DNA of 64,000 bases from a virus (IMGVR_UViG_3300049198_000021:64001-128000), one strand, 5' to 3'; positions 8,059 through 20,276 are shown, numbered from the stretch's first letter. Numbers and translations are program-made. The notes: generated by a model from the letters alone, not told the origin.

Positions 8059-8304
8059 ATGCCTTTGAAACCCGCCGCCGCTCTCAGCAAGGATAAGCTG
8101 GGCGCAAGCCACCCCGCCGCCCTCCAGCACCGGCACTTCGCCGTCATCGCTGGAATCCTCGCCAACCTCGACCGGGACAGCCTCGGCTTGACGCAAGGGC
8201 AGCACCTCAACATCTGCCAAGACTTCGCGTCCGAACTCTCCGGAACAAACCCGAAATTCGACGAGCGTCGATTCATGGTCGCTTGCGGGTTCGCGGCCCC
8301 CTGA
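8059..8304 (+). CDS. Cassette hypothetical protein
   Basis: GGAGA RBS before ATG 8059 (start corrected from track). Confidence 0.8.
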   Translation: MPLKPAAALSKDKLGASHPAALQHRHFAVIAGILANLDRDSLGLTQGQHLNICQDFASELSGTNPKFDERRFMVACGFAAP

Positions 8305-8402
8305 TGGGGTGTCTCGACGCTATCGCCCGGTTCTTTCTGGGCGTCTTTCTGTTGATCCTTGCAACTGGGCTGGCCGCGTGCCAGCCCCTTTTCTTACGGT
8401 AA
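8304..8402 (+). CDS. Micro-lipoprotein, copy 1 (32 aa)
   Basis: MGCLDAIARFFLGVFLLILATGLAACQPLFLR; hydrophobic stretch plus LAAC lipobox; TGATG coupling. Confidence 0.7.
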   Translation: MGCLDAIARFFLGVFLLILATGLAACQPLFLR

Positions 8403-8500
8403 CCAGCCGTTAAGGTTAACGCGGCGGGTAATTCGTTAAGGTTAACGCGGCGGGGTAATTCGTTAAGGTTAACGCGCCGGTTGAAATCGTTAACCATCAA

Positions 8501-8568
8501 AGTGGAAAAGTGCTTGACCGAATCGGTTGGACCACCTAGACCCGAATCACCAACAACGGAGACAGACC
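8501..8568 (+). promoter_or_regulatory. Representative cassette promoter and RBS
   Basis: TTGACC (8514), 17-bp spacer, TAGACC, CGAATCA, ACGGAGACAGACC ATG. Confidence 0.85.
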
Positions 8569-8820
8569 ATGAAACTGCAAGAAATTAGCACCACCGAGGT
8601 GGATGAATCGTGCCTCGACGACGACGGGAAGGTTCCTTACATCGCCTTGCATTGTGCAGCGACGGAAGCTGACGCGGCGTTCGTTATCGCACAAACGACC
8701 GACGGCTACGACGGACGCAGCGATTGGCGCTGGATTCGCCTCCCGAACGGCGATCTGATCCTTGGCGTGTTCCCGCAAGGCGACACCTATCTGCAATTCG
8801 CCGACACCATTGGCATTTAA
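8569..8820 (+). CDS. Cassette hypothetical protein
   Basis: Consensus RBS. Confidence 0.8.
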   Translation: MKLQEISTTEVDESCLDDDGKVPYIALHCAATEADAAFVIAQTTDGYDGRSDWRWIRLPNGDLILGVFPQGDTYLQFADTIGI

Positions 8821-8834
8821 GGGGAGGCAAGTAA

Positions 8835-9203
8835 ATGAACCGCTATTTTTACGACCCGGCGACCGCCTCGTGGGGCTCGGCTGACGACCTCGAAATCTTC
8901 GAACTCGACGACCAGAACATGGACGCCGACGAAATCGAACAGGCGCTGTGCGACGCCTCGCACGTCGGGGCCGGGCTCGGCCTGAAATACCTGCTCGACC
9001 GCCGGGCCAAGAATGAGCCCTACCGCCGGGAGAACATCGGGATTCGCGCCGTGAAGGACAACGGCAAGACCGAATGGGAAGTGGTGGAGGACGACGCCGA
9101 CGCCGACGCCTTCGAACTTTACCGGCATGACACCGGGACGCTTGTCGAAGTTTGCGCCACCCGCGAAGACGCTACCGAATACTGGGAAGCGATCACCACC
9201 TAA
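8835..9203 (+). CDS. Acidic hypothetical protein
   Basis: GGAGG RBS; followed by a terminator. Confidence 0.8.
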   Translation: MNRYFYDPATASWGSADDLEIFELDDQNMDADEIEQALCDASHVGAGLGLKYLLDRRAKNEPYRRENIGIRAVKDNGKTEWEVVEDDADADAFELYRHDTGTLVEVCATREDATEYWEAITT

Positions 9204-9208
9204 GGATT

Positions 9209-9234
9209 GGCGGGCTTCGGCCCGCCTTTCTTTT
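9209..9234 (+). terminator. Representative intrinsic terminator; similar hairpins close most cassettes
   Basis: GGCGGGC TTCG GCCCGCC TTTCTTTT. Confidence 0.85.
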
Positions 9235-9349
9235 ACCGGTAACTATTCGTTAAGGTTAACAGATTGGCTTTAGACGTTAACCATTAAAGTGGAAAAATTA
9301 GTCGAAATAGTGCTTGACCGAATCAGCGAATCATCCTAGACCAAATATC

Positions 9350-9445
9350 GGAATGACCCCTCCGGCGGGCCGCTCGATGACGGGGCGGATGGGGAGGAGG
9401 CGATGGGATAATCCGAAAGGATGAAGCCCACGTTAGCCCGCCAAA
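9350..9445 (+). ncRNA. Candidate structured, possibly pseudoknotted 5' leader RNA
   Basis: Pairings 9357-63/9387-94 and 9364-70/9436-42; GAAA hairpin 9411-22. Confidence 0.4.
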
Positions 9446-9464
9446 TTGTAACAGGAGACAGACC

Positions 9465-9842
9465 ATGCAAACCATCTGGCAATTCGAAACCAAGAACTTC
9501 ACCGTCCGAATGTCTTGCGACTACGATCAGGACACCACAGACCTTTCGTGGGATGACACCGGCGAAGTCGCTGAAAAGCTGGCAAGCGGTGAATGGGCCT
9601 GCTATACCTTCCACGCCGAAGTTATCGAAAACTCCACCGTTAACACCATCGGGGAAGACTACCTCGGCGGTTCTATCTATGCCAACCCGGAAGACTTCCG
9701 GGACCATGTGGGGCTCGCAATCAAGAGCCGCGAAGATGGGCGCAACTATGGCAGCTACTTCACGGACATGATCCGCGAAGCGATCCGCGAGGCTCGCAAG
9801 ACCTACGCCGAACAGCGCCCGCGCCTTCGCGTTCCAGCCTAA
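9465..9842 (+). CDS. Cassette hypothetical protein
   Basis: Consensus RBS AGGAGACAGACC. Confidence 0.85.
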   Translation: MQTIWQFETKNFTVRMSCDYDQDTTDLSWDDTGEVAEKLASGEWACYTFHAEVIENSTVNTIGEDYLGGSIYANPEDFRDHVGLAIKSREDGRNYGSYFTDMIREAIREARKTYAEQRPRLRVPA

Positions 9843-10023
9843 GGGAGAGGGGCCTAGCGCCCCTCTTTCTTCGCCGGTAACTATTCGTTAAGGTTAACGC
9901 ATCGGGGTAATTCGTTAACCATCAAAGTGGAAAAAGTGCTTGACCGAATCACTTGAGACACCTAGAAACGAATCAGCAATGCAGGGAGCGACTCGCACCG
10001 GGCAGCTACAACGGAGATAGGCC

Positions 10024-10413
10024 ATGCCGCAAATTTTGATCGAATACACGAAGACGGAAGTCACCCGCGAACGGGTGTGGATCGAAGCCGACTCGCCCGC
10101 TGAGGCGTTGCGGGTTGTCGAGGAATATGAATTTGACAATTCGGACGCCTACGAAGTCGATTCGCTGCGCTGGGAAATCAGCGATGCTTCTGTGCATGAG
10201 GTGGAGCCCGTGGAAGTGGAAGTGCTTGTGCGCCTCCCCGTCGCCATCACATGCGAGCGCGACAACGTGGAGACCGTGGTCCACCGCGTGGCGACCGTCG
10301 CCGAAGCCGAAGAGTGGATTGCCGTGGGTCTTGCCGACGGGTTCCTTGACGAAGACGACGTGGAACAGGGCACCTACGGAATCGATGCCCCTGAGGAGAT
10401 GATAAACCCATGA
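10024..10413 (+). CDS. Very acidic hypothetical protein
   Basis: RBS; VWIEADSPAEA motif. Confidence 0.8.
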   Translation: MPQILIEYTKTEVTRERVWIEADSPAEALRVVEEYEFDNSDAYEVDSLRWEISDASVHEVEPVEVEVLVRLPVAITCERDNVETVVHRVATVAEAEEWIAVGLADGFLDEDDVEQGTYGIDAPEEMINP

Positions 10414-10670
10414 CCATCATGCGCCCATTCGTGAACATAAACGGCACCAGCCGGGCCGCTCTTGTCGATCAGCGCCGCGCCGCGATGGAAGCCGTCCGGC
10501 TTGCCATGACGGCCCTGCAAGAGACCTGCCCGCATGGCCGCGACTACATCGGCGATCCGGCCCGCTTCGACCATGACCGGGGCGTCTATAACCGGCGGTT
10601 CGCCAAGCTGGACGAATTGCACAACGACTTGCTGGACGAAGCGTTAGCGATTCAGAATGGAGGGGCTTAG
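10410..10670 (+). CDS. Cassette hypothetical protein
   Basis: ATGA overlap; terminator follows. Confidence 0.8.
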   Translation: MTIMRPFVNINGTSRAALVDQRRAAMEAVRLAMTALQETCPHGRDYIGDPARFDHDRGVYNRRFAKLDELHNDLLDEALAIQNGGA

Positions 10671-10804
10671 GCCCCTCTATTTTTACCAGTAACTCGGCGT
10701 TAAGGTTAACACCACAGAGATCGGCCTTAACCATTAAAGTGGAAAAAGTGTTTGACCGAATCGCTTGTTTGTCATAGAACGAATCATCACAACGGAGACA
10801 GACC

Positions 10805-11134
10805 ATGAAAGACTTGCTTGACCGCTGCCTCGCCCGTCCGGGTAAAAACTTCGGAGCGGGCTATGGCTTCGCCCTCGCCTATCTGGACGACAAGATGAAC
10901 CCCGCTCACTTGCGGGACGCCGCTTGTCACATGGTCGGCAAGGCATACGGTCCCCACGGCTGGGCCGCTGCCCGTAAGAGCCCTGATCTGGCGTCATTCG
11001 TGCTGGCATACAGCGAAGCGGAATGCTTCGAAGACTTCGCAATCGAAGCGGCACAACTGCTGCTGGAATGGGGAATGCGTGGCGATCCGGACGCCGCCGC
11101 CGCGCTTCGCCTTTGCGGCCATCCGGGTTATTGA
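10805..11134 (+). CDS. Cassette hypothetical protein
   Basis: Consensus RBS. Confidence 0.8.
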   Translation: MKDLLDRCLARPGKNFGAGYGFALAYLDDKMNPAHLRDAACHMVGKAYGPHGWAAARKSPDLASFVLAYSEAECFEDFAIEAAQLLLEWGMRGDPDAAAALRLCGHPGY

Positions 11135-11281
11135 GGGAGGGGCTTCGGCCCCTTTCTTTTTATTCCTAACACATCGTTAAGGTTAACGCGCCGCCATTCT
11201 CCGTTAACCACTGGGATGGAGAAAGTGCTTGCTCGAATCACTTGATTGGTCTAGGGTGAAACTATCAAGAGGAGATTGCCC

Positions 11282-11515
11282 ATGAAAAACTTGCTCAAGG
11301 AATACCACCAAGCTGCTGACAGGGAAATCCAACGCTGGCCCGGCGTTGCGATTATCGAACGCAGGATCGGCAAACACGCCCGGCTGAGTCTGGAGTTTCA
11401 GGGCCGCAGGCGCTTTGTGATTCACCCGGCCTCACCCAGCGACGTTCGGGGAGTCCATCGCCACGTTCAGGATATTAAGCGCGTCCTGACTGAATTAGGT
11501 GCGAACCGGGTCTAA
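11282..11515 (+). CDS. HicA-like fold protein
   Basis: RRIGKH...VIHPASPSDVRG...DIKRVL resembles phage HicA-like GxH / PSDxR proteins. Confidence 0.55.
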   Translation: MKNLLKEYHQAADREIQRWPGVAIIERRIGKHARLSLEFQGRRRFVIHPASPSDVRGVHRHVQDIKRVLTELGANRV

Positions 11516-11597
11516 AAATAAGTGGAAAAAGTGATTGACCGAATCACTCTAACCGCCTAGACACGAATCACCGCAATCAAGCGGACGGAGACAGACT

Positions 11598-11954
11598 ATG
11601 AAAAACCTCGAAACCCGTATGAATAAGGGCCGGGACGGCTGGCAGGCAAAGACGGAAATCCCTCTCGAAGGGATCAGCATCACGGACGGCGACAAGGTGA
11701 AGCCGGCGATCCTGACGATCAGCACCCGCAAGCATTCGCGTGGCGGCCTCTCCACCGGTTGCAGCGTCGCCTTCCGCGACGGTAACTTCATGACGCACCG
11801 CGTCTATACCGACTTCAACGTCGCCTATACCCGCGACCCGAACGCTCGCTGCACCGAAAAGGCAATCGAGCGGATGCACTCCGAGGCGCTGGCGGACATT
11901 GCCACGATCGAATCAGCGGTTCGCGACCACTACGCCGCGCTCGAAGCGGAATAA
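11598..11954 (+). CDS. Cassette hypothetical protein; paralogue of 12115..12510
   Basis: Consensus RBS; shared motifs. Confidence 0.85.
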   Translation: MKNLETRMNKGRDGWQAKTEIPLEGISITDGDKVKPAILTISTRKHSRGGLSTGCSVAFRDGNFMTHRVYTDFNVAYTRDPNARCTEKAIERMHSEALADIATIESAVRDHYAALEAE

Positions 11955-12114
11955 GGGAAGGCGGGGAAACCCGCCTTTTCTTTTGCCCTTAGCCCGGTGT
12001 TAACCTTAACAAATCGGCCGCATTCGTTAACCATCAAAGTGGAAAAAGTGCTTGACCGAATCGCTTGTTCAACCTAGACACGAATCACCGCAATCAAGCG
12101 GACGGAGACAGACT

Positions 12115-12510
12115 ATGAACGAGACCACCGTCAAAAAAGACCACTGGGGTAAGTGGATTGCTGAAACCCGCACCCCGCTTCCCGGCATTCGCAGCATGAG
12201 CGCCACGAACAACGAAGAGCGCAACGAACCCGCCGCCTTGCTTGTCAGCACCTACAAGGACTCGCGTGGCGATCTGGTCAGCAACGCAATCGTGATCTTC
12301 ATCACGGACAGCGGCCACCGCACCGCAATCGGCGGCCCGACCGGCGACTACAGCCGCACCATCCGCCGCGAACGCGGCGCACGCGTCACCGAGAAGAAGC
12401 TTCGCAGCTATCACGCCGAATCGCTCGGCTATATCCCGCAGGTCGTCGCTGATCTGGCGAACCACTACAATCAGGGCGACCCGCTCGCCGAACGGGCGAA
12501 GGCGGCCTAA
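12115..12510 (+). CDS. Cassette hypothetical protein; paralogue of 11598..11954
   Basis: Start corrected to MNETT; identical leader. Confidence 0.85.
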   Translation: MNETTVKKDHWGKWIAETRTPLPGIRSMSATNNEERNEPAALLVSTYKDSRGDLVSNAIVIFITDSGHRTAIGGPTGDYSRTIRRERGARVTEKKLRSYHAESLGYIPQVVADLANHYNQGDPLAERAKAA

Positions 12511-12674
12511 AAAGACTGGCGGGCTCCGGCCCGCCTTTCTTTTGCCGGTAACCAACCGTTAAGGTTAACGCGACGAGATAATTAGTTAACCATTAAAGTG
12601 GAAAAAGTGCTTGACCGAATCAGCGAGTCACCTTATCAACGAATCACCGCAATCAAGCGGACGGAGACAAGACC

Positions 12675-13025
12675 ATGTGCAACATCGGCGGGCAGATTGG
12701 CCCCTTCATGTATAACCCGGCCTGCAAGCCGGTTGAACGCAAGGTCGGCAAGGTGACGTTCCTTGTCGGCATCGCGACCGCCTACAACGCGTTCGGCCTG
12801 ATTGGCACCGAACACAACGGCATCTTCATTCTCGACGACACGAACATGACCGTCGTCATGGACCGTCACAGCGAAGGCTCGGCTGGTGGCTTCGGCCCCT
12901 ACGGCTCGCAAGTCGCTGAGCGTGACCGCCTGCTCGCCCTGAGCGACGCGGACTTCCTCGCCTTCATTCGCAGCAACCCCCGCTTCCGTGGTGTGGACCT
13001 ACCGAACGTGGGGAAGGCCGCATGA
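12675..13025 (+). CDS. Cassette hypothetical protein
   Basis: Consensus RBS. Confidence 0.8.
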   Translation: MCNIGGQIGPFMYNPACKPVERKVGKVTFLVGIATAYNAFGLIGTEHNGIFILDDTNMTVVMDRHSEGSAGGFGPYGSQVAERDRLLALSDADFLAFIRSNPRFRGVDLPNVGKAA

Positions 13026-13324
13026 TCGACCGGGACAAGTTTCTCGCCATGCTCGACACACTGGAGTGTCGCGGCCTCATCAACGCACCAACAGCCTATT
13101 CAGGACGGGGAATGTATGGAAAGCGTTGCATCGCCCTGACTGGGGATTCGGTCAGCGAATGGGGCCTCGCAATCCAAATGGCGGCCATTGCCGACGAATA
13201 CGACGTGACGCCCTACGACCTGCCTGAGCCCTCGACCGATTCGATGGGACGGGGCATCGTCCTCTATTGGCGGGGCCTCGAATGGCCGGAAGACCGCCGC
13301 GATCCGGACGAAGACGAATACTAA
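13022..13324 (+). CDS. Cassette hypothetical protein (YSGRGMYGKRC / DSMGRG motif)
   Basis: ATGA overlap; terminator follows. Confidence 0.8.
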   Translation: MIDRDKFLAMLDTLECRGLINAPTAYSGRGMYGKRCIALTGDSVSEWGLAIQMAAIADEYDVTPYDLPEPSTDSMGRGIVLYWRGLEWPEDRRDPDEDEY

Positions 13325-13474
13325 GGGAAGGCGGGGCAACCCGCCTTTTCTTTTGCCCTTAGCCCGGTGTTAACCTTAACAAATCGGATCAAGTAGTTAA
13401 CCATCAAAGTGGAAAAAGTGCTTGACCGAATCGCTTGTGCAACCTAGAACCGAATCACCAACAGGAGACAGACC

Positions 13475-13783
13475 ATGCGAATCAGTCACATTGAAATGAC
13501 CATCACCCTCGAAGACGGCCAGACCGTGCAGGGCCTTATCAGCCCGGAAGGCGAATCGCGCTGGGGCAATGACATTCCCCACCTCGCCGCCGCCGTGATA
13601 CCCATGGAAGCCATGGCCGCCGCCTTGCAGGAAAACGACGCGTGGGAACGCGAAGAAGAAGACGAAGACGAATACCACGGCGAATGCGGCCAGTGCGAAG
13701 GCACCGGCACAATCGAAGGCGGGCTTGGCGGTGATGGGGACGACGAAGAATGCCCTGTCTGTGACGGAAGCGGGGAACTCTGA
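13475..13783 (+). CDS. Acidic protein with DnaJ-type zinc-finger repeats
   Basis: CGQCEGTG ... CPVCDGSG. Confidence 0.8.
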   Translation: MRISHIEMTITLEDGQTVQGLISPEGESRWGNDIPHLAAAVIPMEAMAAALQENDAWEREEEDEDEYHGECGQCEGTGTIEGGLGGDGDDEECPVCDGSGEL

Positions 13784-14025
13784 TGCACAAGACCCCGCCC
13801 GCAATCGACACCAGCGTTACCGTCCAACTCTGGACGCCCGGCGGCTTGATTGTCAGCATCCCCGCCGGGTTCATTACGTCCGATCCCGTCCGGGCTTCGC
13901 TCGACAAGCGGACGCAAGAAGGCGACACACACGCGGCAATCACCATGGCCCGGCACACCGGCCTAGACGTAACCATCCGCCGGGAAACCCAGACCACCGT
14001 TCGCGCCTCCGATCTGGAGGCGTGA
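13783..14025 (+). CDS. Cassette hypothetical protein
   Basis: TGATG coupling. Confidence 0.7.
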   Translation: MHKTPPAIDTSVTVQLWTPGGLIVSIPAGFITSDPVRASLDKRTQEGDTHAAITMARHTGLDVTIRRETQTTVRASDLEA

Positions 14026-14151
14026 GCGCCCGTTTACCAGCCGTTAACCTTAACAAATTGAACTAACTTGTTAACCGCTGATCTGGAAAAAGTGCTTGAC
14101 CAAATGCAACGGCTCGCCTAGAAACGAATCAGTTGAAACGGAGACAAGACC

Positions 14152-14709
14152 ATGTTTGATGCACTCGACCAGAAGACTTTCATCCTTTGCGGGCTCGCAA
14201 TCGAAGCGGCGGCGGATGACGACGAATCAATCGACAAGCGCGACCCGTCAAAGCTGGAATATCAGCGCGGCTCCGAAGTCACCGGGGTGGCATGGCTGAG
14301 CGGCTATGACTCACGGGGTGACGCCCCGCCTTGCCTGCAAAAGGTGATCGACTCGCACTATGACGCGCAAAACGCCGAATGGAAGCGGCAATATCCGGAC
14401 CGCCCCGATCTGCACCTTTGCGTGGATTATGCCGACGCCCTCCCCTACGCTGGGGAAGCTGAGGAATGGCTGGACGCCGTGCTGAGCGGCCCGGACGGGC
14501 GCGGGGAAGCCGCCTATCTGCAAATCGAAGTCACTTTCGACGACGATACGGTTCAATGGTGGGCGCGCTTTACCGATGAAATCAACGCCCCGCTATCCGA
14601 AGGCGGGCGCGGCGAAATGGACGCCGAAGCGTTCCTTGCGCTGGACGACGACGCGCTGGAAACGCTCGCAAAGGAGATTGCCGAGTCGGCTTATGACTAC
14701 GGCGCTTGA
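14152..14709 (+). CDS. Acidic hypothetical protein
   Basis: Consensus RBS; 185 aa. Confidence 0.85.
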   Translation: MFDALDQKTFILCGLAIEAAADDDESIDKRDPSKLEYQRGSEVTGVAWLSGYDSRGDAPPCLQKVIDSHYDAQNAEWKRQYPDRPDLHLCVDYADALPYAGEAEEWLDAVLSGPDGRGEAAYLQIEVTFDDDTVQWWARFTDEINAPLSEGGRGEMDAEAFLALDDDALETLAKEIAESAYDYGA

Positions 14710-14850
14710 AGACTGGCGGGCTCCGGCCCGCCTTTCTTTTGCCGGTAACCAGCCGTTAACCTTAACAAGTCGTTACCACTAGGTGGAAAAAGTGATTGAC
14801 CGAATCGGTTGTGTCTCCTAGAAACGAATCAGTTGAAACGGAGACCGACC

Positions 14851-15147
14851 ATGAGCATCACATACCACACCACCCTGCCCGCTTGGGAACACGGTGAACT
14901 CGATGAAAGAGGCTGCCTACGCCCGACGAAAGGTAAGCTGATCTGGAGCAATACCAACCCGCCTCCGGCGATTGGCGACCGCGTTCGCATCCGCGTCAAC
15001 GGCATCGGCATGGCGACCGTGGAGTCCTACTTCGAACAGGAAGGCTATCTCGGCATCCTGACGACCGTTGACGCTTGGCCGACGTTCTTCGCCAAGCAGA
15101 ACGGCGAGGACCGCTCCTGCCACGCGTTCGGCGCTGAAATCGCTTAA
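14851..15147 (+). CDS. Cassette hypothetical protein
   Basis: Start corrected to MSITY. Confidence 0.8.
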   Translation: MSITYHTTLPAWEHGELDERGCLRPTKGKLIWSNTNPPPAIGDRVRIRVNGIGMATVESYFEQEGYLGILTTVDAWPTFFAKQNGEDRSCHAFGAEIA

Positions 15148-15309
15148 AGACTGGCGGGCTCCGGCCCGCCTTTCTTTTGCCGGTAACCAGCCGTTAACCT
15201 TAACAAATCGGCCTAAGTTGTTAACCATCAAAGTGGAAAAACTACTTGACCGAATCGGCTGGAACGCATAGAAACGAATCACCGCAATCAAGCGGTTGGA
15301 GACCTGACC

Positions 15310-15732
15310 ATGCCTAAGTGGCAATACACCGGCGATATGTCGCTTGAATATGGCGGCTTCTACTGGAAAGACGAGGGTGATCCCGAGTCGGTGGAAGCCC
15401 TCAAGGTCACCCCTTGCAGCGACGCGGGCGGCCCCGACAACCTGTTCCACGTCGAATCGGGAACGGTCTACATGAACCCCGAACGCCTCGAATCGGCACT
15501 GGATGTCATCGGGCTCACGCCTGAAACGGCAAGCCGGGATGATGTGATCTACGCGTTCCAAGCCTATTCAGGACTGGACCGGGACGCCTACGGCGGCGAG
15601 CGGGTGATTCGCATCGGTCCGGATGAATCCGACTACATGCGCCGGTCCGGCGGGTGGAACCCGGAACCCGACGTAATCCTGCGCGCTGGGACCGATCTTC
15701 GCAAGTGGATTGAACGCAACTGGCTGGATTAG
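15310..15732 (+). CDS. Cassette hypothetical protein
   Basis: RBS and terminator. Confidence 0.8.
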   Translation: MPKWQYTGDMSLEYGGFYWKDEGDPESVEALKVTPCSDAGGPDNLFHVESGTVYMNPERLESALDVIGLTPETASRDDVIYAFQAYSGLDRDAYGGERVIRIGPDESDYMRRSGGWNPEPDVILRAGTDLRKWIERNWLD

Positions 15733-15864
15733 GTTAGGGGCTTAGGCCCCTTTCCTTTCCCGGTAACCTGCCGTTAACCTTAACAATCGGTTACCATTAA
15801 GTGGAAAAAGTGCTTGACCGAATCGGTTGTCTAACCTAGAACGAATCATCTAAGGAGACAGACC

Positions 15865-16200
15865 ATGAAACCTAAAGACATTGCCGTCGATTATTACAGA
15901 CAAACCCGCACCTATCATTGGCTTCCCCTTGACCCCACAAAAGCCGACTACGGCGCATCGTGGGGATTGCGGGGACCGCAAGGCACCACCTATCTGCTGA
16001 TCGCCGATCAATCCTATCCGGATTGGACACATCGCTTGGTTGCTATCGGGCAATACTCTGGACTCTATAACATGGAGACCGGGCGCGGCTCGGATGAGAT
16101 CGCCCGCGACATCGCATCCATCCTGAAAGCACACCCCGGCAATCTCGATATTGACCGCAAGATCAAGAAGGCTGACTTCGATTCGTGGGTGCTGGTATGA
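15865..16200 (+). CDS. Cassette hypothetical protein
   Basis: Consensus RBS. Confidence 0.8.
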   Translation: MKPKDIAVDYYRQTRTYHWLPLDPTKADYGASWGLRGPQGTTYLLIADQSYPDWTHRLVAIGQYSGLYNMETGRGSDEIARDIASILKAHPGNLDIDRKIKKADFDSWVLV

Positions 16201-16388
16201 CCACCGCCCTATTCCCCGCCCATTGGGGACCGCAAGGCCGGTTCTATCATCGCTCAAACGGGACGGCCTACGGACCTTCCCAACCGGGCGAAACGTTGGA
16301 GCAATACAAGGCCCGGATCAAAAACGCCTATGGCAACTTGCGGGGCGTTACGTTCCACGACGCAAACGAGGAGAGCCCCGGCGAATAG
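16197..16388 (+). CDS. Cassette hypothetical protein
   Basis: ATGA overlap. Confidence 0.7.
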   Translation: MTTALFPAHWGPQGRFYHRSNGTAYGPSQPGETLEQYKARIKNAYGNLRGVTFHDANEESPGE

Positions 16389-16508
16389 CCGGGACGATCC
16401 CGGTAACCAGCCGTTAACCTTAACAAGTCGTTACCACTAGGTGGAAAAAGTGCTTGACCGAATCGCTTGTGTTGCTTAGAAACGAATCAGTTGAAACGGA
16501 GACAGACC

Positions 16509-17009
16509 ATGCCAGACGCACGCGACTACACCGCCTTCCACGAAGTGGACGATGCAACATATGGGCGGGAAGCCCTACGCAAAGCCGACTTTGCCGCTTG
16601 CCCTATCCTCGCTGATTTCATCGCCACCATGCTGCAAGACTTGCAGTATCGGGAAGCGGATGAAGCTTGCGAGGAAGAGCGGGAAGAGGGCGACACCGGC
16701 ACCATCTACACCCTTGAAGAGGGTGTCTATCAGCGTTGCAAGACCCTCTGCGAAGAGTTCATGGAACGCAACGCAACGCACATCGCCGAAGCGCTTGATC
16801 TGGAACCGGGCTCCGATGGACTCCGCTATACCAGCAATCACATCACGCACGAACGAATCGGCTCAACGTTCTACATGCTACTTGTCGGGCACGGGGTTAG
16901 CTTCACCGATGATGGCAACGCCCCTTGCCTCGAAGCCTTGAACGCAGACACCCGATGCGAGCGCGGCGCTGAGTTCTACTTTGACGGGGAGCGCGTCTAT
17001 TACTGCTAA
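16509..17009 (+). CDS. Acidic hypothetical protein
   Basis: Start corrected to MPDAR. Confidence 0.85.
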   Translation: MPDARDYTAFHEVDDATYGREALRKADFAACPILADFIATMLQDLQYREADEACEEEREEGDTGTIYTLEEGVYQRCKTLCEEFMERNATHIAEALDLEPGSDGLRYTSNHITHERIGSTFYMLLVGHGVSFTDDGNAPCLEALNADTRCERGAEFYFDGERVYYC

Positions 17010-17160
17010 GGGAAGGCGGGGCAACCCGCCTTTTCCTTACCGGTAACCGATCGTTAAGGTTAACACACCAACCGATCTTGTTAACCATCAAAGTGAAAAA
17101 AGTGCTTGACCGAATCACTTGGCTGTCCTAGAAACGAATCACCAACAACGGAGACAGACC

Positions 17161-17400
17161 ATGCAGACCGCAGTTCAACGCCTTAACGAAGCCGCTAAGA
17201 CCTCATTCATGAAGCCGCAGTGCTTCAAGGGTGGTGAGATTCAGGAAGCTATCATGGAAGCTGGCCTCGATCTCGAAGACGACAAGGTTTATGCCCGCCT
17301 GTCGGCAAACGGCTATCTGGATTGCACCGATTGGAGCGGCCCTTACGATAGCGTGGAAGAGGCGGCGGAAGGCTTGCTTTCCCTATACTTCGAAGATTAA
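17161..17400 (+). CDS. Cassette hypothetical protein (ARLSANGYLDCTDW motif)
   Basis: Start corrected to MQTAV. Confidence 0.8.
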   Translation: MQTAVQRLNEAAKTSFMKPQCFKGGEIQEAIMEAGLDLEDDKVYARLSANGYLDCTDWSGPYDSVEEAAEGLLSLYFED

Positions 17401-17421
17401 GGAGAGCTTGACGTGGTGCAA

Positions 17422-17568
17422 ATGAACGAAACAGCAATCCAAGCGCCGCGCTATGACGGGCGAATCATCCGGGCGATTAACGGCGGAACCGTCAAGGTAG
17501 GTGGCGGATGGGACCCGGAACGACCGCGACGACTCGACTTCGACACCATGCCTTGTGTGTGGGTGTGA
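17422..17568 (+). CDS. Small hypothetical protein (48 aa)
   Basis: Manual translation MNETAIQAPRYDGR...; ends at a terminator. Confidence 0.45.
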   Translation: MNETAIQAPRYDGRIIRAINGGTVKVGGGWDPERPRRLDFDTMPCVWV

Positions 17569-17722
17569 GGGGCTTCGGCCCCTCTCTTTTTGTCTGGTAA
17601 CCAGCCGTTAACCTTAACAGCGCGGTAACTAAATGGAAAAACTTCTGGACGAATTGGCTTGCGAATCGCTGGCGACTCACCTAGGAAGAGTTCAGCGCAA
17701 TTCCGCGCTTGGAGACGACCAA

Positions 17723-18157
17723 ATGTCATCACCTTTCCTCCCGTCGGTGCAAGAGCAACTGCAATCGCGCCGCGACGAATCCGAAACCGAGTTCGCTGTG
17801 ACCCACATCGATACTTGCCTTTCCTCATTCCTGAATGACCACCACAATCGCGATGGCGAATTGCTGCTGGGCGTTTTCGTGGATGGTAACGCCACTGTCG
17901 GGCAAGTGCTGGACGGCTTGCGCGACGAATATCGCCAGATCGCCTACGAGATGGGCGAGAATCGGCTGGGCTTCGATTACGACGCCGGCTTGGCTGCCAT
18001 CGATTCGGTGATCGCCGAGAACGACGATAATCGTGACAAGCCGTTTGACGCTTCGCTGGACGTTCTGGGCGAAGACGACGATTGCAGCGAATCGTGCCAA
18101 GCGTGGTTCCTCATCCACTGGGACGTTCCGGAAGAGGAGGACGGCTCATCGGATTGA
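17723..18157 (+). CDS. Very acidic hypothetical protein
   Basis: GGAGA RBS before ATG 17723. Confidence 0.8.
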   Translation: MSSPFLPSVQEQLQSRRDESETEFAVTHIDTCLSSFLNDHHNRDGELLLGVFVDGNATVGQVLDGLRDEYRQIAYEMGENRLGFDYDAGLAAIDSVIAENDDNRDKPFDASLDVLGEDDDCSESCQAWFLIHWDVPEEEDGSSD

Positions 18158-18246
18158 TGGATGCGGTTGTCCGCTTAATCGTTGGAGTTCTTTTCCTGAT
18201 CCTTGCAACTGGGCTGGCCGCGTGCCAGCCCCTTTTCTTTGGGTAA
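18157..18246 (+). CDS. Micro-lipoprotein, copy 2 (29 aa)
   Basis: MDAVVRLIVGVLFLILATGLAACQPLFFG; TGATG coupling. Confidence 0.65.
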   Translation: MDAVVRLIVGVLFLILATGLAACQPLFFG

Positions 18247-18347
18247 CCATTCGTTAAGGTTAACAATACGTGGAGCCCGGTGGAAAAAGTGCTTGACCGA
18301 ATCGCTTGCGTCACCTAGGAACGAATCAGTTGAAACGGAGACAGACC

Positions 18348-18605
18348 ATGAAGCCGCATCCATCTCTTGAAGTAACCCGCCCGGATGAAGTCGCCGAGTG
18401 TTGGGAAGGTATCTACGAAGTTCCCGGTCTTTATCAGGCGCTGTGGGGTTGCGTGGGTGATTACAAGGCCCCTTCGCCGGAAGTATCGGAAGAGCCCTGC
18501 CACGGCATGGATTCGGTGGCTGACTTCTGGGATCGGTTCTCGGACGATCACAAGGCGGCGCTCAATGCAGCCGCCGAGGCGCAAGACGCGCTCTGGGGAG
18601 AATGA
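18348..18605 (+). CDS. Cassette hypothetical protein
   Basis: Start corrected to MKPHP. Confidence 0.8.
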   Translation: MKPHPSLEVTRPDEVAECWEGIYEVPGLYQALWGCVGDYKAPSPEVSEEPCHGMDSVADFWDRFSDDHKAALNAAAEAQDALWGE

Positions 18606-18856
18606 CCATGAAGATTTTCGTTATCACCGACACCGACTGCAACGGGGAAGACCGGAGCCTTATCGTGGCGGCTCGCGACACCGAAGGAGCCCGCCAAGAG
18701 TGGCAGGCATACTACGAGATCGAAGACGATGACGAAGACGGCACCATGCCCGACCGCATCTTCAAGACCGAATTGATGCTACCACCCGGTTACAATCAGC
18801 CCTTCCCGCTGGGATGGCACAACGACCATATGCATCAGGTCGCCGGGTTGCTTTGA
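18602..18856 (+). CDS. Cassette hypothetical protein
   Basis: ATGA overlap; terminator follows. Confidence 0.75.
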   Translation: MTMKIFVITDTDCNGEDRSLIVAARDTEGARQEWQAYYEIEDDDEDGTMPDRIFKTELMLPPGYNQPFPLGWHNDHMHQVAGLL

Positions 18857-19012
18857 GGGGAGGGGCTTAGGCCCCTCTCTTTTTACCTGTAACCCTTCGT
18901 TAAGGTTAACAGCCCGACAAGCTCTGGAAAAATAAATGGAGAAAGTGCTTGCGCGAATCGAATCACTGGCCTATTACCGAATCACCGGCACGGAGCCGGA
19001 AGGAGAAAGACC

Positions 19013-19459
19013 ATGCAAGACGCCTCAATTTTCAAGCGCCGTGAAACGACCTTCAACGGTGGCGAATCGACCACTGGGACATTCATCCCCAAGCAGACCG
19101 TCACGATCGGGCGGTGTGTTGACGAAAACGAAGACATCTGGACCGTTACGGACGTGAACGGCAAAACCCACCGGGTTGATGGATGCGAGTTGCACCCGCA
19201 CCCGGAAGCCGCGCTGACCAACATCGAGTTCATGAATCTGGTCATGACGTGGTGCAAGACCCCGTTGATGCACGCCTTCATCTTTCAGGCGCTGGATCAA
19301 TACGCCAAGGCTGTCGTCAAGGCAGACGTGGCGACGCTCGAAACCCCGTTCATCGCCGGGGCGGCGTGGCAGGAAACGGCCCGTGAATATATGGGCTTCG
19401 CTGTCGCCCGTGAATACGTGGAGAAAGAGCGCCACAAGGAATTGACTCCGGCCGATTGA
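19013..19459 (+). CDS. Cassette hypothetical protein
   Basis: AAGGAG RBS. Confidence 0.8.
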   Translation: MQDASIFKRRETTFNGGESTTGTFIPKQTVTIGRCVDENEDIWTVTDVNGKTHRVDGCELHPHPEAALTNIEFMNLVMTWCKTPLMHAFIFQALDQYAKAVVKADVATLETPFIAGAAWQETAREYMGFAVAREYVEKERHKELTPAD

Positions 19460-19638
19460 GCCTTCGGGCTCTCGGCAGAGGGGCAGGGTTTGGTCGCCCT
19501 GCCCCTCACCTTTTTCTGGTAGGGACCCGTTAACCTTAACAAATAGGGCCGGGTTGTTAACTCTGAAAGTGGAGAAAGTGCTTGACCGAATCACTTGCTT
19601 CGGGCAGAAACGAATCACCACAACCGGAGATAGACCAA

Positions 19639-20055
19639 ATGGACGTTTATGTTTTCCAAGCCGCGCTGATCTGCGACACTTGCGGCACGCTCTACAAGCA
19701 AGGCACGGACCGCCCGGCTCACGTCGATGAAAGCGACGAGTCCAGCTACGACTCGGACGATTGGCCCAAAGGCCCTTACGGGGATGGCGGCGGTGAGGCT
19801 GATAGCCCCTGCCACTGCGATCACTGCGGGGTGTTCCTCGACAATCCCTTGACCGGCGACGGGGAGACCTATGTCCGCGACGCTTTCCGGGAGTTCGTGG
19901 AGACCGGGCGGGGAAGCCTCGAAGTTCTCGCCGAGTGGAAAGCGGCCTATGACTGGGTGTGGTCGGACTTCGAGTCCATCACCCTCGAAGGGATGCGAGA
20001 GGAAGGTATCACCGATATTTGCGAGCGCCGCGCCGCGTCCCTCGAAGCGGCCTAA
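19639..20055 (+). CDS. Acidic hypothetical protein with two CxxC motifs
   Basis: CDTC ... CHCDHC; start corrected to MDVYV. Confidence 0.8.
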   Translation: MDVYVFQAALICDTCGTLYKQGTDRPAHVDESDESSYDSDDWPKGPYGDGGGEADSPCHCDHCGVFLDNPLTGDGETYVRDAFREFVETGRGSLEVLAEWKAAYDWVWSDFESITLEGMREEGITDICERRAASLEAA

Positions 20056-20168
20056 TGGGTTGCCTTGACGCAATCGCCCGCGCCCTTCTGGGTGTGCTAC
20101 TGCTGATCATGGCTGCCGGGGTTGCGTCATGCACCCCGGCATTTTTATTTCTGGTAACGGTTCGTTAA
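20055..20168 (+). CDS. Micro-lipoprotein, copy 3 (37 aa)
   Basis: MGCLDAIARALLGVLLLIMAAGVASCTPAFLFLVTVR; VASC lipobox; TAATG coupling. Confidence 0.7.
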   Translation: MGCLDAIARALLGVLLLIMAAGVASCTPAFLFLVTVR

Positions 20169-20276
20169 CCTTAACGAATACATTCACCTTGTTAACCATC
20201 TTTGAAGTGGAAAAAGTGCTTGACCAAATCACTTGCACCGCCTAGAAACGAATCACCAACAACGGAGACAAACCAA

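Follow-up and report, generated by a model that had tools for sequence, protein, structure and literature searches.

What do three very short open reading frames (ORFs) encode when each of them runs into the terminator of its own transcription unit? They lie in a 64,000-nucleotide stretch of viral DNA (IMGVR_UViG_3300049198_000021:64001-128000), hereafter the window, which comprises bases 64001-128000 of a 176.5-kb IMG/VR virus record. A first-pass annotation had described them as three copies of an unannotated micro-lipoprotein gene whose 3' end doubles as the terminator, and had proposed a lipopeptide of 7-12 residues as the active product. We found that the three ORFs are paralogues belonging to one conserved micro-gene family, which occurs in CbK-like phages that infect sphingomonads (Erythrobacter phages and Sphingobium phage Lacusarx). 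Each copy stands as the final cistron in a short early transcription unit. The copies are located in the window as follows.

8304..8402, + strand: micro-gene copy 1 (c1), 32 codons; MGCLD..R N-terminal motif, hydrophobic helix, lipobox LAAC, tail of 6 residues; orthologues in Erythrobacter phage XM05 (L004), G003/G004 (L008), G005 (L043) and L055/L056.
18154..18246, + strand: micro-gene copy 2 (c2), starting at ATG 18157 (29 codons, 18157-18246) or TTG 18154; lipobox LAAC, tail of 6 residues.
20055..20168, + strand: micro-gene copy 3 (c3), 37 codons; lipobox VASC, tail of 11 residues; ATG overlapping the upstream TAA; orthologues in L006, L013, L022, L050 and L058.

The structural description held in every respect: the ORFs at 8304-8402, 18157-18246 and 20055-20168 encode peptides of 29-37 amino acids, they overlap the stops of the genes upstream (TGATG for c1 and c2, TAATG for c3), and their lipoboxes (LAAC, LAAC and VASC) lie within terminator-like hairpins, each with a T-rich run. 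As had also been claimed, MGCLDAIAR is common to c1 and c3, whose codons for it differ at exactly five sites, all third positions and all synonymous. In c2, the in-frame TTG (18154) lies one codon 5' of the ATG and overlaps the upstream TGA, and the ancestral ATG-GGN start is now ATC, within the end of the upstream gene.

By their codon statistics, the micro-ORFs are real genes with the peptide under purifying selection. In 11 close sequences (28 codons), the variable sites were distributed 20/8/27 over the three codon positions and in-frame omega was 0.08-0.38; T occupied almost every second codon position, as is characteristic of a hydrophobic peptide. The homologue search with a selection test that had been proposed as a check on the ORFs showed the frame to be kept. 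Six roughly independent ortholog contrasts gave 51.5 synonymous (Sd) and 45.5 nonsynonymous differences (Nd), for a per-site ratio of nonsynonymous to synonymous differences (pN/pS) of 0.37 (binomial p=1.6e-6), and a pN/pS of 4.3 was obtained from the same contrasts read in frame +2. Purifying selection was thus confined to one frame, and this frame was intact in all of the ~29 homologues, including distant ones with unrelated stems. A chance ORF or a pure RNA element was excluded by the codon statistics.

About 27 distinct homologues in the Erythrobacter-phage clade (XM05, vB_EliS-L02 and uncultured relatives) retain both the frame and the Cys. The 176.5-kb record contains exactly three copies, each with orthologues elsewhere, indicating that their presence is not due to chance. 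Five genomes (the window's phage, XM05, G003, G004 and G005) carry three copies in the same order behind upstream genes that are mostly orthologous, the fragments G001 and G002 carry two copies each, and vB_EliS-L02 carries one distant copy. Paralogues have diverged as much as orthologues (pS 0.5-0.8) and orthologues cluster by position, indicating that the triplication is older than these phages. A profile search of 1.84 billion proteins yielded nine further small proteins (29-74 residues) with the same motif, and four additional members were found in a metagenome scan. Sphingobium phage Lacusarx has two homologues (family-profile E 1e-8 and 5e-6), both Cys-less, and a wider scan for Cys-less members turned up Lacusarx itself only. 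Searches of Caulobacter phage CcrRogue and of two unrelated Erythrobacter phages, ZS04 and R22L, gave no family member. The peptides matched no family at threshold in Pfam or PHROGs; a PDB profile search gave only chance 15-residue matches to TrmD (E ~1), the ESM Atlas gave low-score matches only (best 0.81; one DUF7186 cluster) with no informative family, and a protein search with a 40-residue region query gave no candidate. The description of the gene as unannotated was correct for the GenBank records of XM05 and vB_EliS-L02, but several members had already been called by metagenome gene callers.

The 3' half of each micro-gene also forms a hairpin in the RNA, as listed below.

8367..8395, + strand: c1 terminator-like element; 8-bp stem and 5-nt loop (8367-8387), arms GGGCTGGC / GCCAGCCC, then CTTTTCTT.
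18211..18240, + strand: c2 terminator-like hairpin; stem-loop at 18211-18231 with the arms of c1 (GGGCTGGC / GCCAGCCC), then a T-run.
20115..20150, + strand: c3 hairpin; GCCGGGG / CCCCGGC with a bulged inner GC pair (20115-20140), T-run TTTTTATTT.

All three have the make-up of intrinsic terminators: a T-run comes immediately after a GC-rich stem-loop, and the two together close the unit ahead of the next promoter. They occupy the position of the generic terminators of other units in the region. The c1 and c2 hairpins were among the region's best terminator-like sites in a consensus scan, and the RNA was structured at c1 and c3 (z -3.0 and -2.5, respectively). We recoded 13 codons around the Cys synonymously 500 times per member in 20 members, using the phage's own codon usage; recoding was performed for each sequence separately because the stem slides, so that no single fixed structure could be counted across the family. 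The hairpin was more stable than 97-100% of the synonymous recodings in each of the 20 members (97.8% for c1 and 99.4% for c3). The stems were wholly different among distant members. The TGC codon lies at the loop edge in the window copies, and in c1 it places T at the loop closure and GC atop the 3' arm; the Cys codon falls midway along the 3' arm in L033, L035 and L036, and L037 uses TGT for the Cys. A compensatory GGA/TCC pair was seen in XM05 c3 and a G-U pair in G002 c2. Thus, the hairpin sequence and register shift while the motif A-x-G-[LV]-x-[AS]-C persists, and A20, G22, the A/S at -1 and the Cys are retained through several codons (GCA/GCT/GCC/GCG, GGG/GGA and TGC/TGT). Because the hairpin surpasses the recodings and the motif residues are kept by way of several codons, this stretch is truly dual-coded: the peptide motif and the RNA hairpin are each under their own selection on shared bases.

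A second terminator-like hairpin was observed within c1 (8324-8343; CGCCCGG / CTGGGCG plus a T-rich run), spanning codons R9 to G13; a similar one is present in c3 and none in c2 or XM05 c1. We also noted that c1 and c2 are identical over 41 nt (8355-8395 = 18199-18239), which cover the last helix codons, the lipobox, the hairpin and the T-run, and that their 5' halves differ at 17 positions. This pattern suggests that the 3' half of c1 and c2 was homogenised by recombination together with the adjoining intergenic cassette.

Which part of the peptide is selected? The conserved core is the first ~25 residues, M-G-x-L-[DE]-x3-R-x3-G-x4-I-x-A-x-G, which reads as a short polar head followed by one hydrophobic helix. 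In the Erythrobacter-phage branch, the frame then runs through an invariant [LV]-x-[AS]-C into the unit's terminator hairpin. When lipobox patterns were compared with 21 members, the strict pattern [LVI][ASTVI][GAS]C matched 19, the PS51257 core all 21 and the G+LPP pattern 20, with the Cys at residue 23-27 in every member, inside the 15-35 range required of a precursor. The helix ahead of the Cys (13 residues plus the lipobox) has the length of a signal peptide. The Cys was present in ~27/27 members of the Erythrobacter-phage clade, in both codons and in differing hairpin registers, and in 0/2 Lacusarx homologues. Positions -3, -1 and +1 are invariant and everything after them is variable, as is typical of a cleavage site. 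Conservation is lowest in the tail after the Cys (3 to ~30 residues, 3-11 in most members), which is the translation of the T-run and of the boxes of the following cassette. The product from the Cys onward (Cys included) would be 7, 7 and 12 residues for c1, c2 and c3, respectively; unlike in a lipoprotein precursor, no mature protein follows the Cys.

The Lacusarx homologues bear directly on this question. One is TAATG-coupled to LAV_00219 and has 24 codons, with a separate terminator 6 nt past its stop; the other starts with TTG behind AGGAGG and has 25 codons. Both stop just before the Cys position. Between the two, pS was 0.84 and pN 0.28, indicating that both are maintained as peptides. 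Selection on these Cys-less forms indicates that the selectable unit is the helix peptide of ~25 residues, and their length is that which LspA cleavage would leave of the Erythrobacter-phage forms. Homologues that keep the hairpin but break the frame or lose the Cys had been named at the outset as the finding that would speak against a micro-lipoprotein gene; none was seen among the ~27 in the Erythrobacter-phage clade, whereas both Lacusarx homologues lack the Cys.

Each micro-gene is coupled to the gene that precedes it. These genes are as follows.

8059..8304, + strand: gene upstream of c1, 81 aa, no family; its stop overlaps the micro-gene start.
17633..18157, + strand: gene upstream of c2, 174 aa, acidic C-terminus, no family.
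19639..20055, + strand: gene upstream of c3, 138 aa, acidic and Cys-rich, CxxC...CxCxxC (zinc-ribbon-like), no family hit.

In accord with the first-pass annotation, the upstream genes are different ones: the three showed no mutual relatedness by BLASTP, and at the c3 place of the uncultured relatives G001, G003 and G004 a different gene precedes the same micro-gene. In 22 of the 24 members for which DNA was available, a canonical start overlaps or abuts the upstream stop. Six coupling arrangements occur in the family (TGATG, TAATG, TAGTG, TAG-GTG, TTGA and ATGA), and start-stop coupling in such varied arrangements fits re-initiation after termination. The varying frame of the micro-gene relative to the upstream gene speaks against a fusion by frameshift or read-through. 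Recoding that would fuse the helix to the upstream protein was rejected, c1 being in frame -1, XM05 c1 in frame 0 after TAG and other overlaps elsewhere; at c3 it is also contradicted by the variation of the upstream gene between phages. At 8296-8318 and 20047-20064, hairpins place the c1 and c3 stop/start junction in the loop and would enforce coupling; they were no more stable than shuffles (z -1.5 to +1.5), and no such role is claimed.

The + strand of the window from ~7.9 to 30.6 kb carries at least 36 short transcription units with the same cassette ahead of each. The cassette consists, in order, of a GC hairpin with a T-run, GGTAAC, at least one GTTAAGGTTAAC box, GTTAACCATCAAA, the promoter-like GTGGAAAAAGTGCTTGACC, a conserved leader and GGAGACAGACC-ATG. 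Window positions 7979-30541 hold this promoter-like sequence, GTGGAAAAAGTGCTTGACC, at least 36 times (chance expectation, 0); a 37th, with one A fewer, lies at 8502-8519 and escaped the 3-mismatch search. The stop codon is followed immediately by the hairpin in most units; three units have 70-90 extra bases in between, which are the micro-genes. The cassettes behind them are listed below.

8398..8519, + strand: cassette after c1; GGTAAC box (which gives the stop), three tandem CGTTAAGGTTAACG boxes, GTTAACCATCAAA and the promoter variant GTGGAAAAGTGCTTGACC at 8502-8519.
18242..18298, + strand: cassette after c2; GGTAAC box, a single GTTAAGGTTAAC box and a promoter at 18280-18298.
20153..20225, + strand: cassette after c3; GGTAAC box, a palindromic CGTTAACCTTAACG box (which contains the stop) and a promoter at 20207-20225.

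The stops of c1 and c2 are the TAA within the cassette box GGTAAC, and c3 crosses this box in another frame to end in the CGTTAAC of the next box. The GTTAAGGTTAACG box, of which most cassettes have one, occurs three times in tandem after c1 (window 8403-8480, period ~27 nt) and twice at the orthologous site of XM05 (L004:1600-1660). Lacusarx has the same cassette box, GTTACCATTCGTTAAGGTTAACG, after its micro-gene (L063:1570-1620, ~121.50-121.55 kb), indicating that the intergenic cassette is common to phage genera with different host genera. By Megablast, the window matched only Erythrobacter phage XM05 (~79% identity, patchy) and vB_EliS-L02, a CbK-like siphovirus by description (PMC9127768). 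CtrA-type boxes are known from early or terminal-repeat regions of CbK-like phages (PMC9437464). The papers on vB_EliS-L02, Lacusarx and XM05 make no mention of micro-ORFs or cassette terminators.

Taken together, these data indicate that the coupled micro-genes are conserved and that their functional product is probably a membrane helix, a judgement that leaves lipid processing aside. Ribosomes ending the upstream gene would re-initiate on the micro-gene, and the peptide would insert N-in into the host inner membrane with its Cys at the periplasmic face. The active part would be the helix rather than the tail, with the membrane or a membrane protein as its target early in infection. If the peptide is inserted in this way, the lipobox could serve as a substrate of Lgt and LspA, the gain being removal of the variable tail encoded by the terminator; on the sequence evidence, the odds of lipid modification by Lgt are about even. 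The trimmed product would have ~25 residues, the same length as Lacusarx encodes directly. With the hairpin in frame and the stop past the expected RNA 3' end, the full-length peptide would come only from read-through transcripts. A closely following ribosome should itself weaken termination by blocking the hairpin, and peptide output and read-through into the next unit would then be expected to be linked.

Several observations weigh against a translated, membrane-inserted peptide of this kind. None of c1-c3 has a Shine-Dalgarno sequence at a useful distance. The c2 orthologues of XM05 and G002 have no canonical start at the expected place, and neither these two nor G005 c3 has a stop before the next promoter. 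The K/R within the first seven residues that the PROSITE rule calls for is found in only 6 of the 21 members, which are of the c2 type, and c1 and c3 instead carry their Arg at position 9, with a conserved Asp (position 5) in the n-region. Intrinsic terminators release the RNA ~7-9 nt beyond the stem. The micro-gene stop lies past the stem by 13 nt in c1 and c2 and by 25 nt in c3, that is, beyond the expected release point, so that terminated RNAs would be non-stop messages. In vB_EliS-L02 (L019:1489-1581) and L033 (1201-1293), the internal hairpin is kept with no T-run and thus lacks the make-up of a terminator, and the Shine-Dalgarno sequence of the following gene (TGAGGAGA and TAGGGAGA) overlaps the micro-gene stop; a terminator role does not explain the hairpin in these two. 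The family sequences are related by descent, and counts such as 20 of 20 therefore overstate independence. Finally, translation, membrane insertion and processing of the peptide are themselves predictions.

The length of the Lacusarx peptides, which equals that of LspA-cleaved Erythrobacter-phage forms, suggests a more specific model, which we put forward tentatively and consider rather unlikely. The lipobox would be a self-trimming device: because the frame must enter the terminator, the tail would be variable, stop-less or tagged by ribosome rescue, and its removal by Lgt and LspA at the invariant Cys would free a uniform membrane peptide of 25 residues as the effector. It is also possible, although we hold it doubtful, that the peptide is a plain single-pass membrane micro-protein that is never lipid-modified, with the Cys and the preceding small residue having some other use, for example in an intermolecular disulfide on the periplasmic side or in helix packing, and with both persisting also because the GC of TGC aids the stem. 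The Lacusarx forms that lack the Cys show the helix to be selectable by itself, G13, A20 and G22 are conserved small residues that hint at packing between helices, phages commonly encode small hydrophobic peptides, and 5 of 12 members have a sub-threshold D..R...G likeness to the first helix of the YgaP-like transmembrane (TM) domain (best E 0.004). However, the invariant -3, -1 and +1 positions with a variable tail behind them resemble a cleavage site, the Cys is kept in differing hairpin registers and in both codons, and Lgt would by default be expected to accept a peptide that presents a perfect lipobox on the periplasmic side. In another alternative, the peptides are true micro-lipoproteins and the lipidated remnant of 4-12 residues would be active in the outer membrane, either in superinfection exclusion or as a decoy saturating Lgt, LspA and Lol. 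The lipobox is invariant in the ~27 Erythrobacter-phage-clade members and satisfies the pattern rules, the helix ahead of the Cys is of signal-peptide length, and the +2 residue is Q/T/A/S, which in Lol sorting gives no inner-membrane retention signal. Nevertheless, the would-be mature part is the least conserved, variable in length and dictated by the T-run and the cassette boxes, and conservation is highest in the "signal peptide", whereas ordinary lipoproteins show the opposite; the Cys-less Lacusarx homologues are under selection, there is no likeness to Llp or Cor and no folded receptor-binding domain, and the Pfam lipid-attachment models were not matched except by one member to LPAM_MltD (E 0.11). 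We therefore regard this alternative as improbable. The lipoprotein proposal of the first-pass annotation thus survives in part: the lipobox is real and selected in the Erythrobacter-phage clade, but the evidence favours the helix as the functional part. A lipopeptide of 7-12 residues as the active product is contradicted by the unconserved tail, by stops that lie past the expected termination point or are absent, and by Lacusarx forms that end before the Cys. Superinfection exclusion finds no backing in homology or shared architecture with Llp or Cor. Nothing in the data supports exclusion or bears on a decoy role.

Two further alternatives place the function in the RNA. The micro-gene could be a regulatory ORF whose translation through the hairpin blocks the terminator and so ties read-through into the next early unit to translation of the upstream gene. 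The hairpin lies fully within the frame in every Erythrobacter-phage member, the stop is past the expected release point or missing, and the start is always coupled to the upstream stop; such regulation would also be compatible with a functional peptide. On its own, however, it would leave the residues free to change, whereas pN/pS is 0.37 and several positions are invariant. Moreover, vB_EliS-L02 and L033 retain the ORF and the hairpin without a T-run, the Lacusarx stop precedes a separate terminator, and no conserved antiterminator pairing was seen in folds of the three loci, so that this explanation is unlikely. The view that the frames go untranslated and arise only as by-products of a conserved element, a structured RNA or DNA, at the 3' ends of units would account for the structured RNA at c1 and c3, for the lack of a Shine-Dalgarno sequence and for the two c2 orthologues without a clean start and stop. 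It is very hard to reconcile with the 20/8/27 codon-position pattern, with synonymous changes that prevail in frame 0 only, and with a frame kept in all ~29 homologues, even where the stems are unrelated, and we consider it highly improbable.

With these results, a group of large marine and freshwater phages, nearly all of whose early genes have no known function, gains a conserved gene family present in several copies, one that the standard annotation of XM05, vB_EliS-L02 and Lacusarx overlooks. They also provide a clean, statistically supported example of one 40-nt stretch selected for both a peptide motif and an RNA hairpin. If the lipobox is used, the micro-genes would encode the smallest lipoprotein precursors known, and the host lipoprotein pathway would tidy a peptide whose gene enters its own terminator, which is a testable idea. 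If the trimming model is true, phages would have their first example of a lipoprotein signal peptide that is itself the product, with the shortest lipoproteins known as by-products. Because XM05, vB_EliS-L02 and Lacusarx are cultured with their hosts, ordinary bench tests are feasible.

Among known systems, the peptides resemble bacterial lipoprotein precursors (signal peptidase II [SPII], Lgt/LspA; PS51257) in having a polar head with Arg, a 13-residue hydrophobic stretch and [LV]-x-[AS]-C at residue 23-27. They differ in having 3-11 unconserved residues past the Cys, in place of the folded mature protein of a normal precursor, and in their conserved "signal peptide", the Arg at position 9 after a conserved Asp and their Cys-less Lacusarx relatives. 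Like T5 Llp and T1/phi80 Cor, they are small, phage-encoded, early-expressed and equipped with a lipobox. T5 Llp acts via a folded mature domain that binds FhuA (10.1101/2022.06.28.497910; PMC9586334), whereas the micro-peptides are without a mature domain and their tail is too short to fold; no match of the micro-peptides to Llp or Cor was found in Pfam or PHROGs. The micro-genes share with leader-peptide attenuators and other terminator-overlapping ORFs a short ORF across a terminator hairpin, so that translation and termination should interfere. They are unlike leader attenuators in that the ORF lies at the 3' end of the unit, with no regulatory codon runs, no alternative pairing and a conserved peptide; mutually exclusive terminator/antiterminator pairing, which defines an attenuator, was not conserved in folds of the three loci.

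The YgaP-like TM domain (PF11127, formerly DUF2892) has the same G-x-L-D-x3-R-x3-G followed by a hydrophobic helix, and the weak hits to it in 5 of 12 members (best E 0.004) reached at most 16.5 bits against a curated cut-off of 25.3. Membership was rejected on this score and on an alignment that covers profile positions 5-36 of 66; the domain comprises two helices in its 66 positions and the micro-peptides one. KdpF, AcrZ, MgrB and CydX are small single-pass bacterial membrane proteins that, like the micro-peptides, have ~30 residues, one helix and conserved small residues and are missed by annotation. They are chromosomal, single-copy and located beside partner genes, whereas the micro-genes are phage-borne, present in three copies behind unrelated genes and overlap terminators. 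Enterococcal sex pheromones are cut from lipoprotein signal peptides (PMC4173765). They differ in being Gram-positive, secreted 7-8-residue fragments of full-length lipoproteins that depend on Eep and an ATP-binding cassette (ABC) exporter, and the processing proposed here is hypothetical; nevertheless, they offer a precedent for a signal peptide that is active after LspA cleavage, which fits both the conservation pattern of the micro-genes and the Cys-less forms of Lacusarx.

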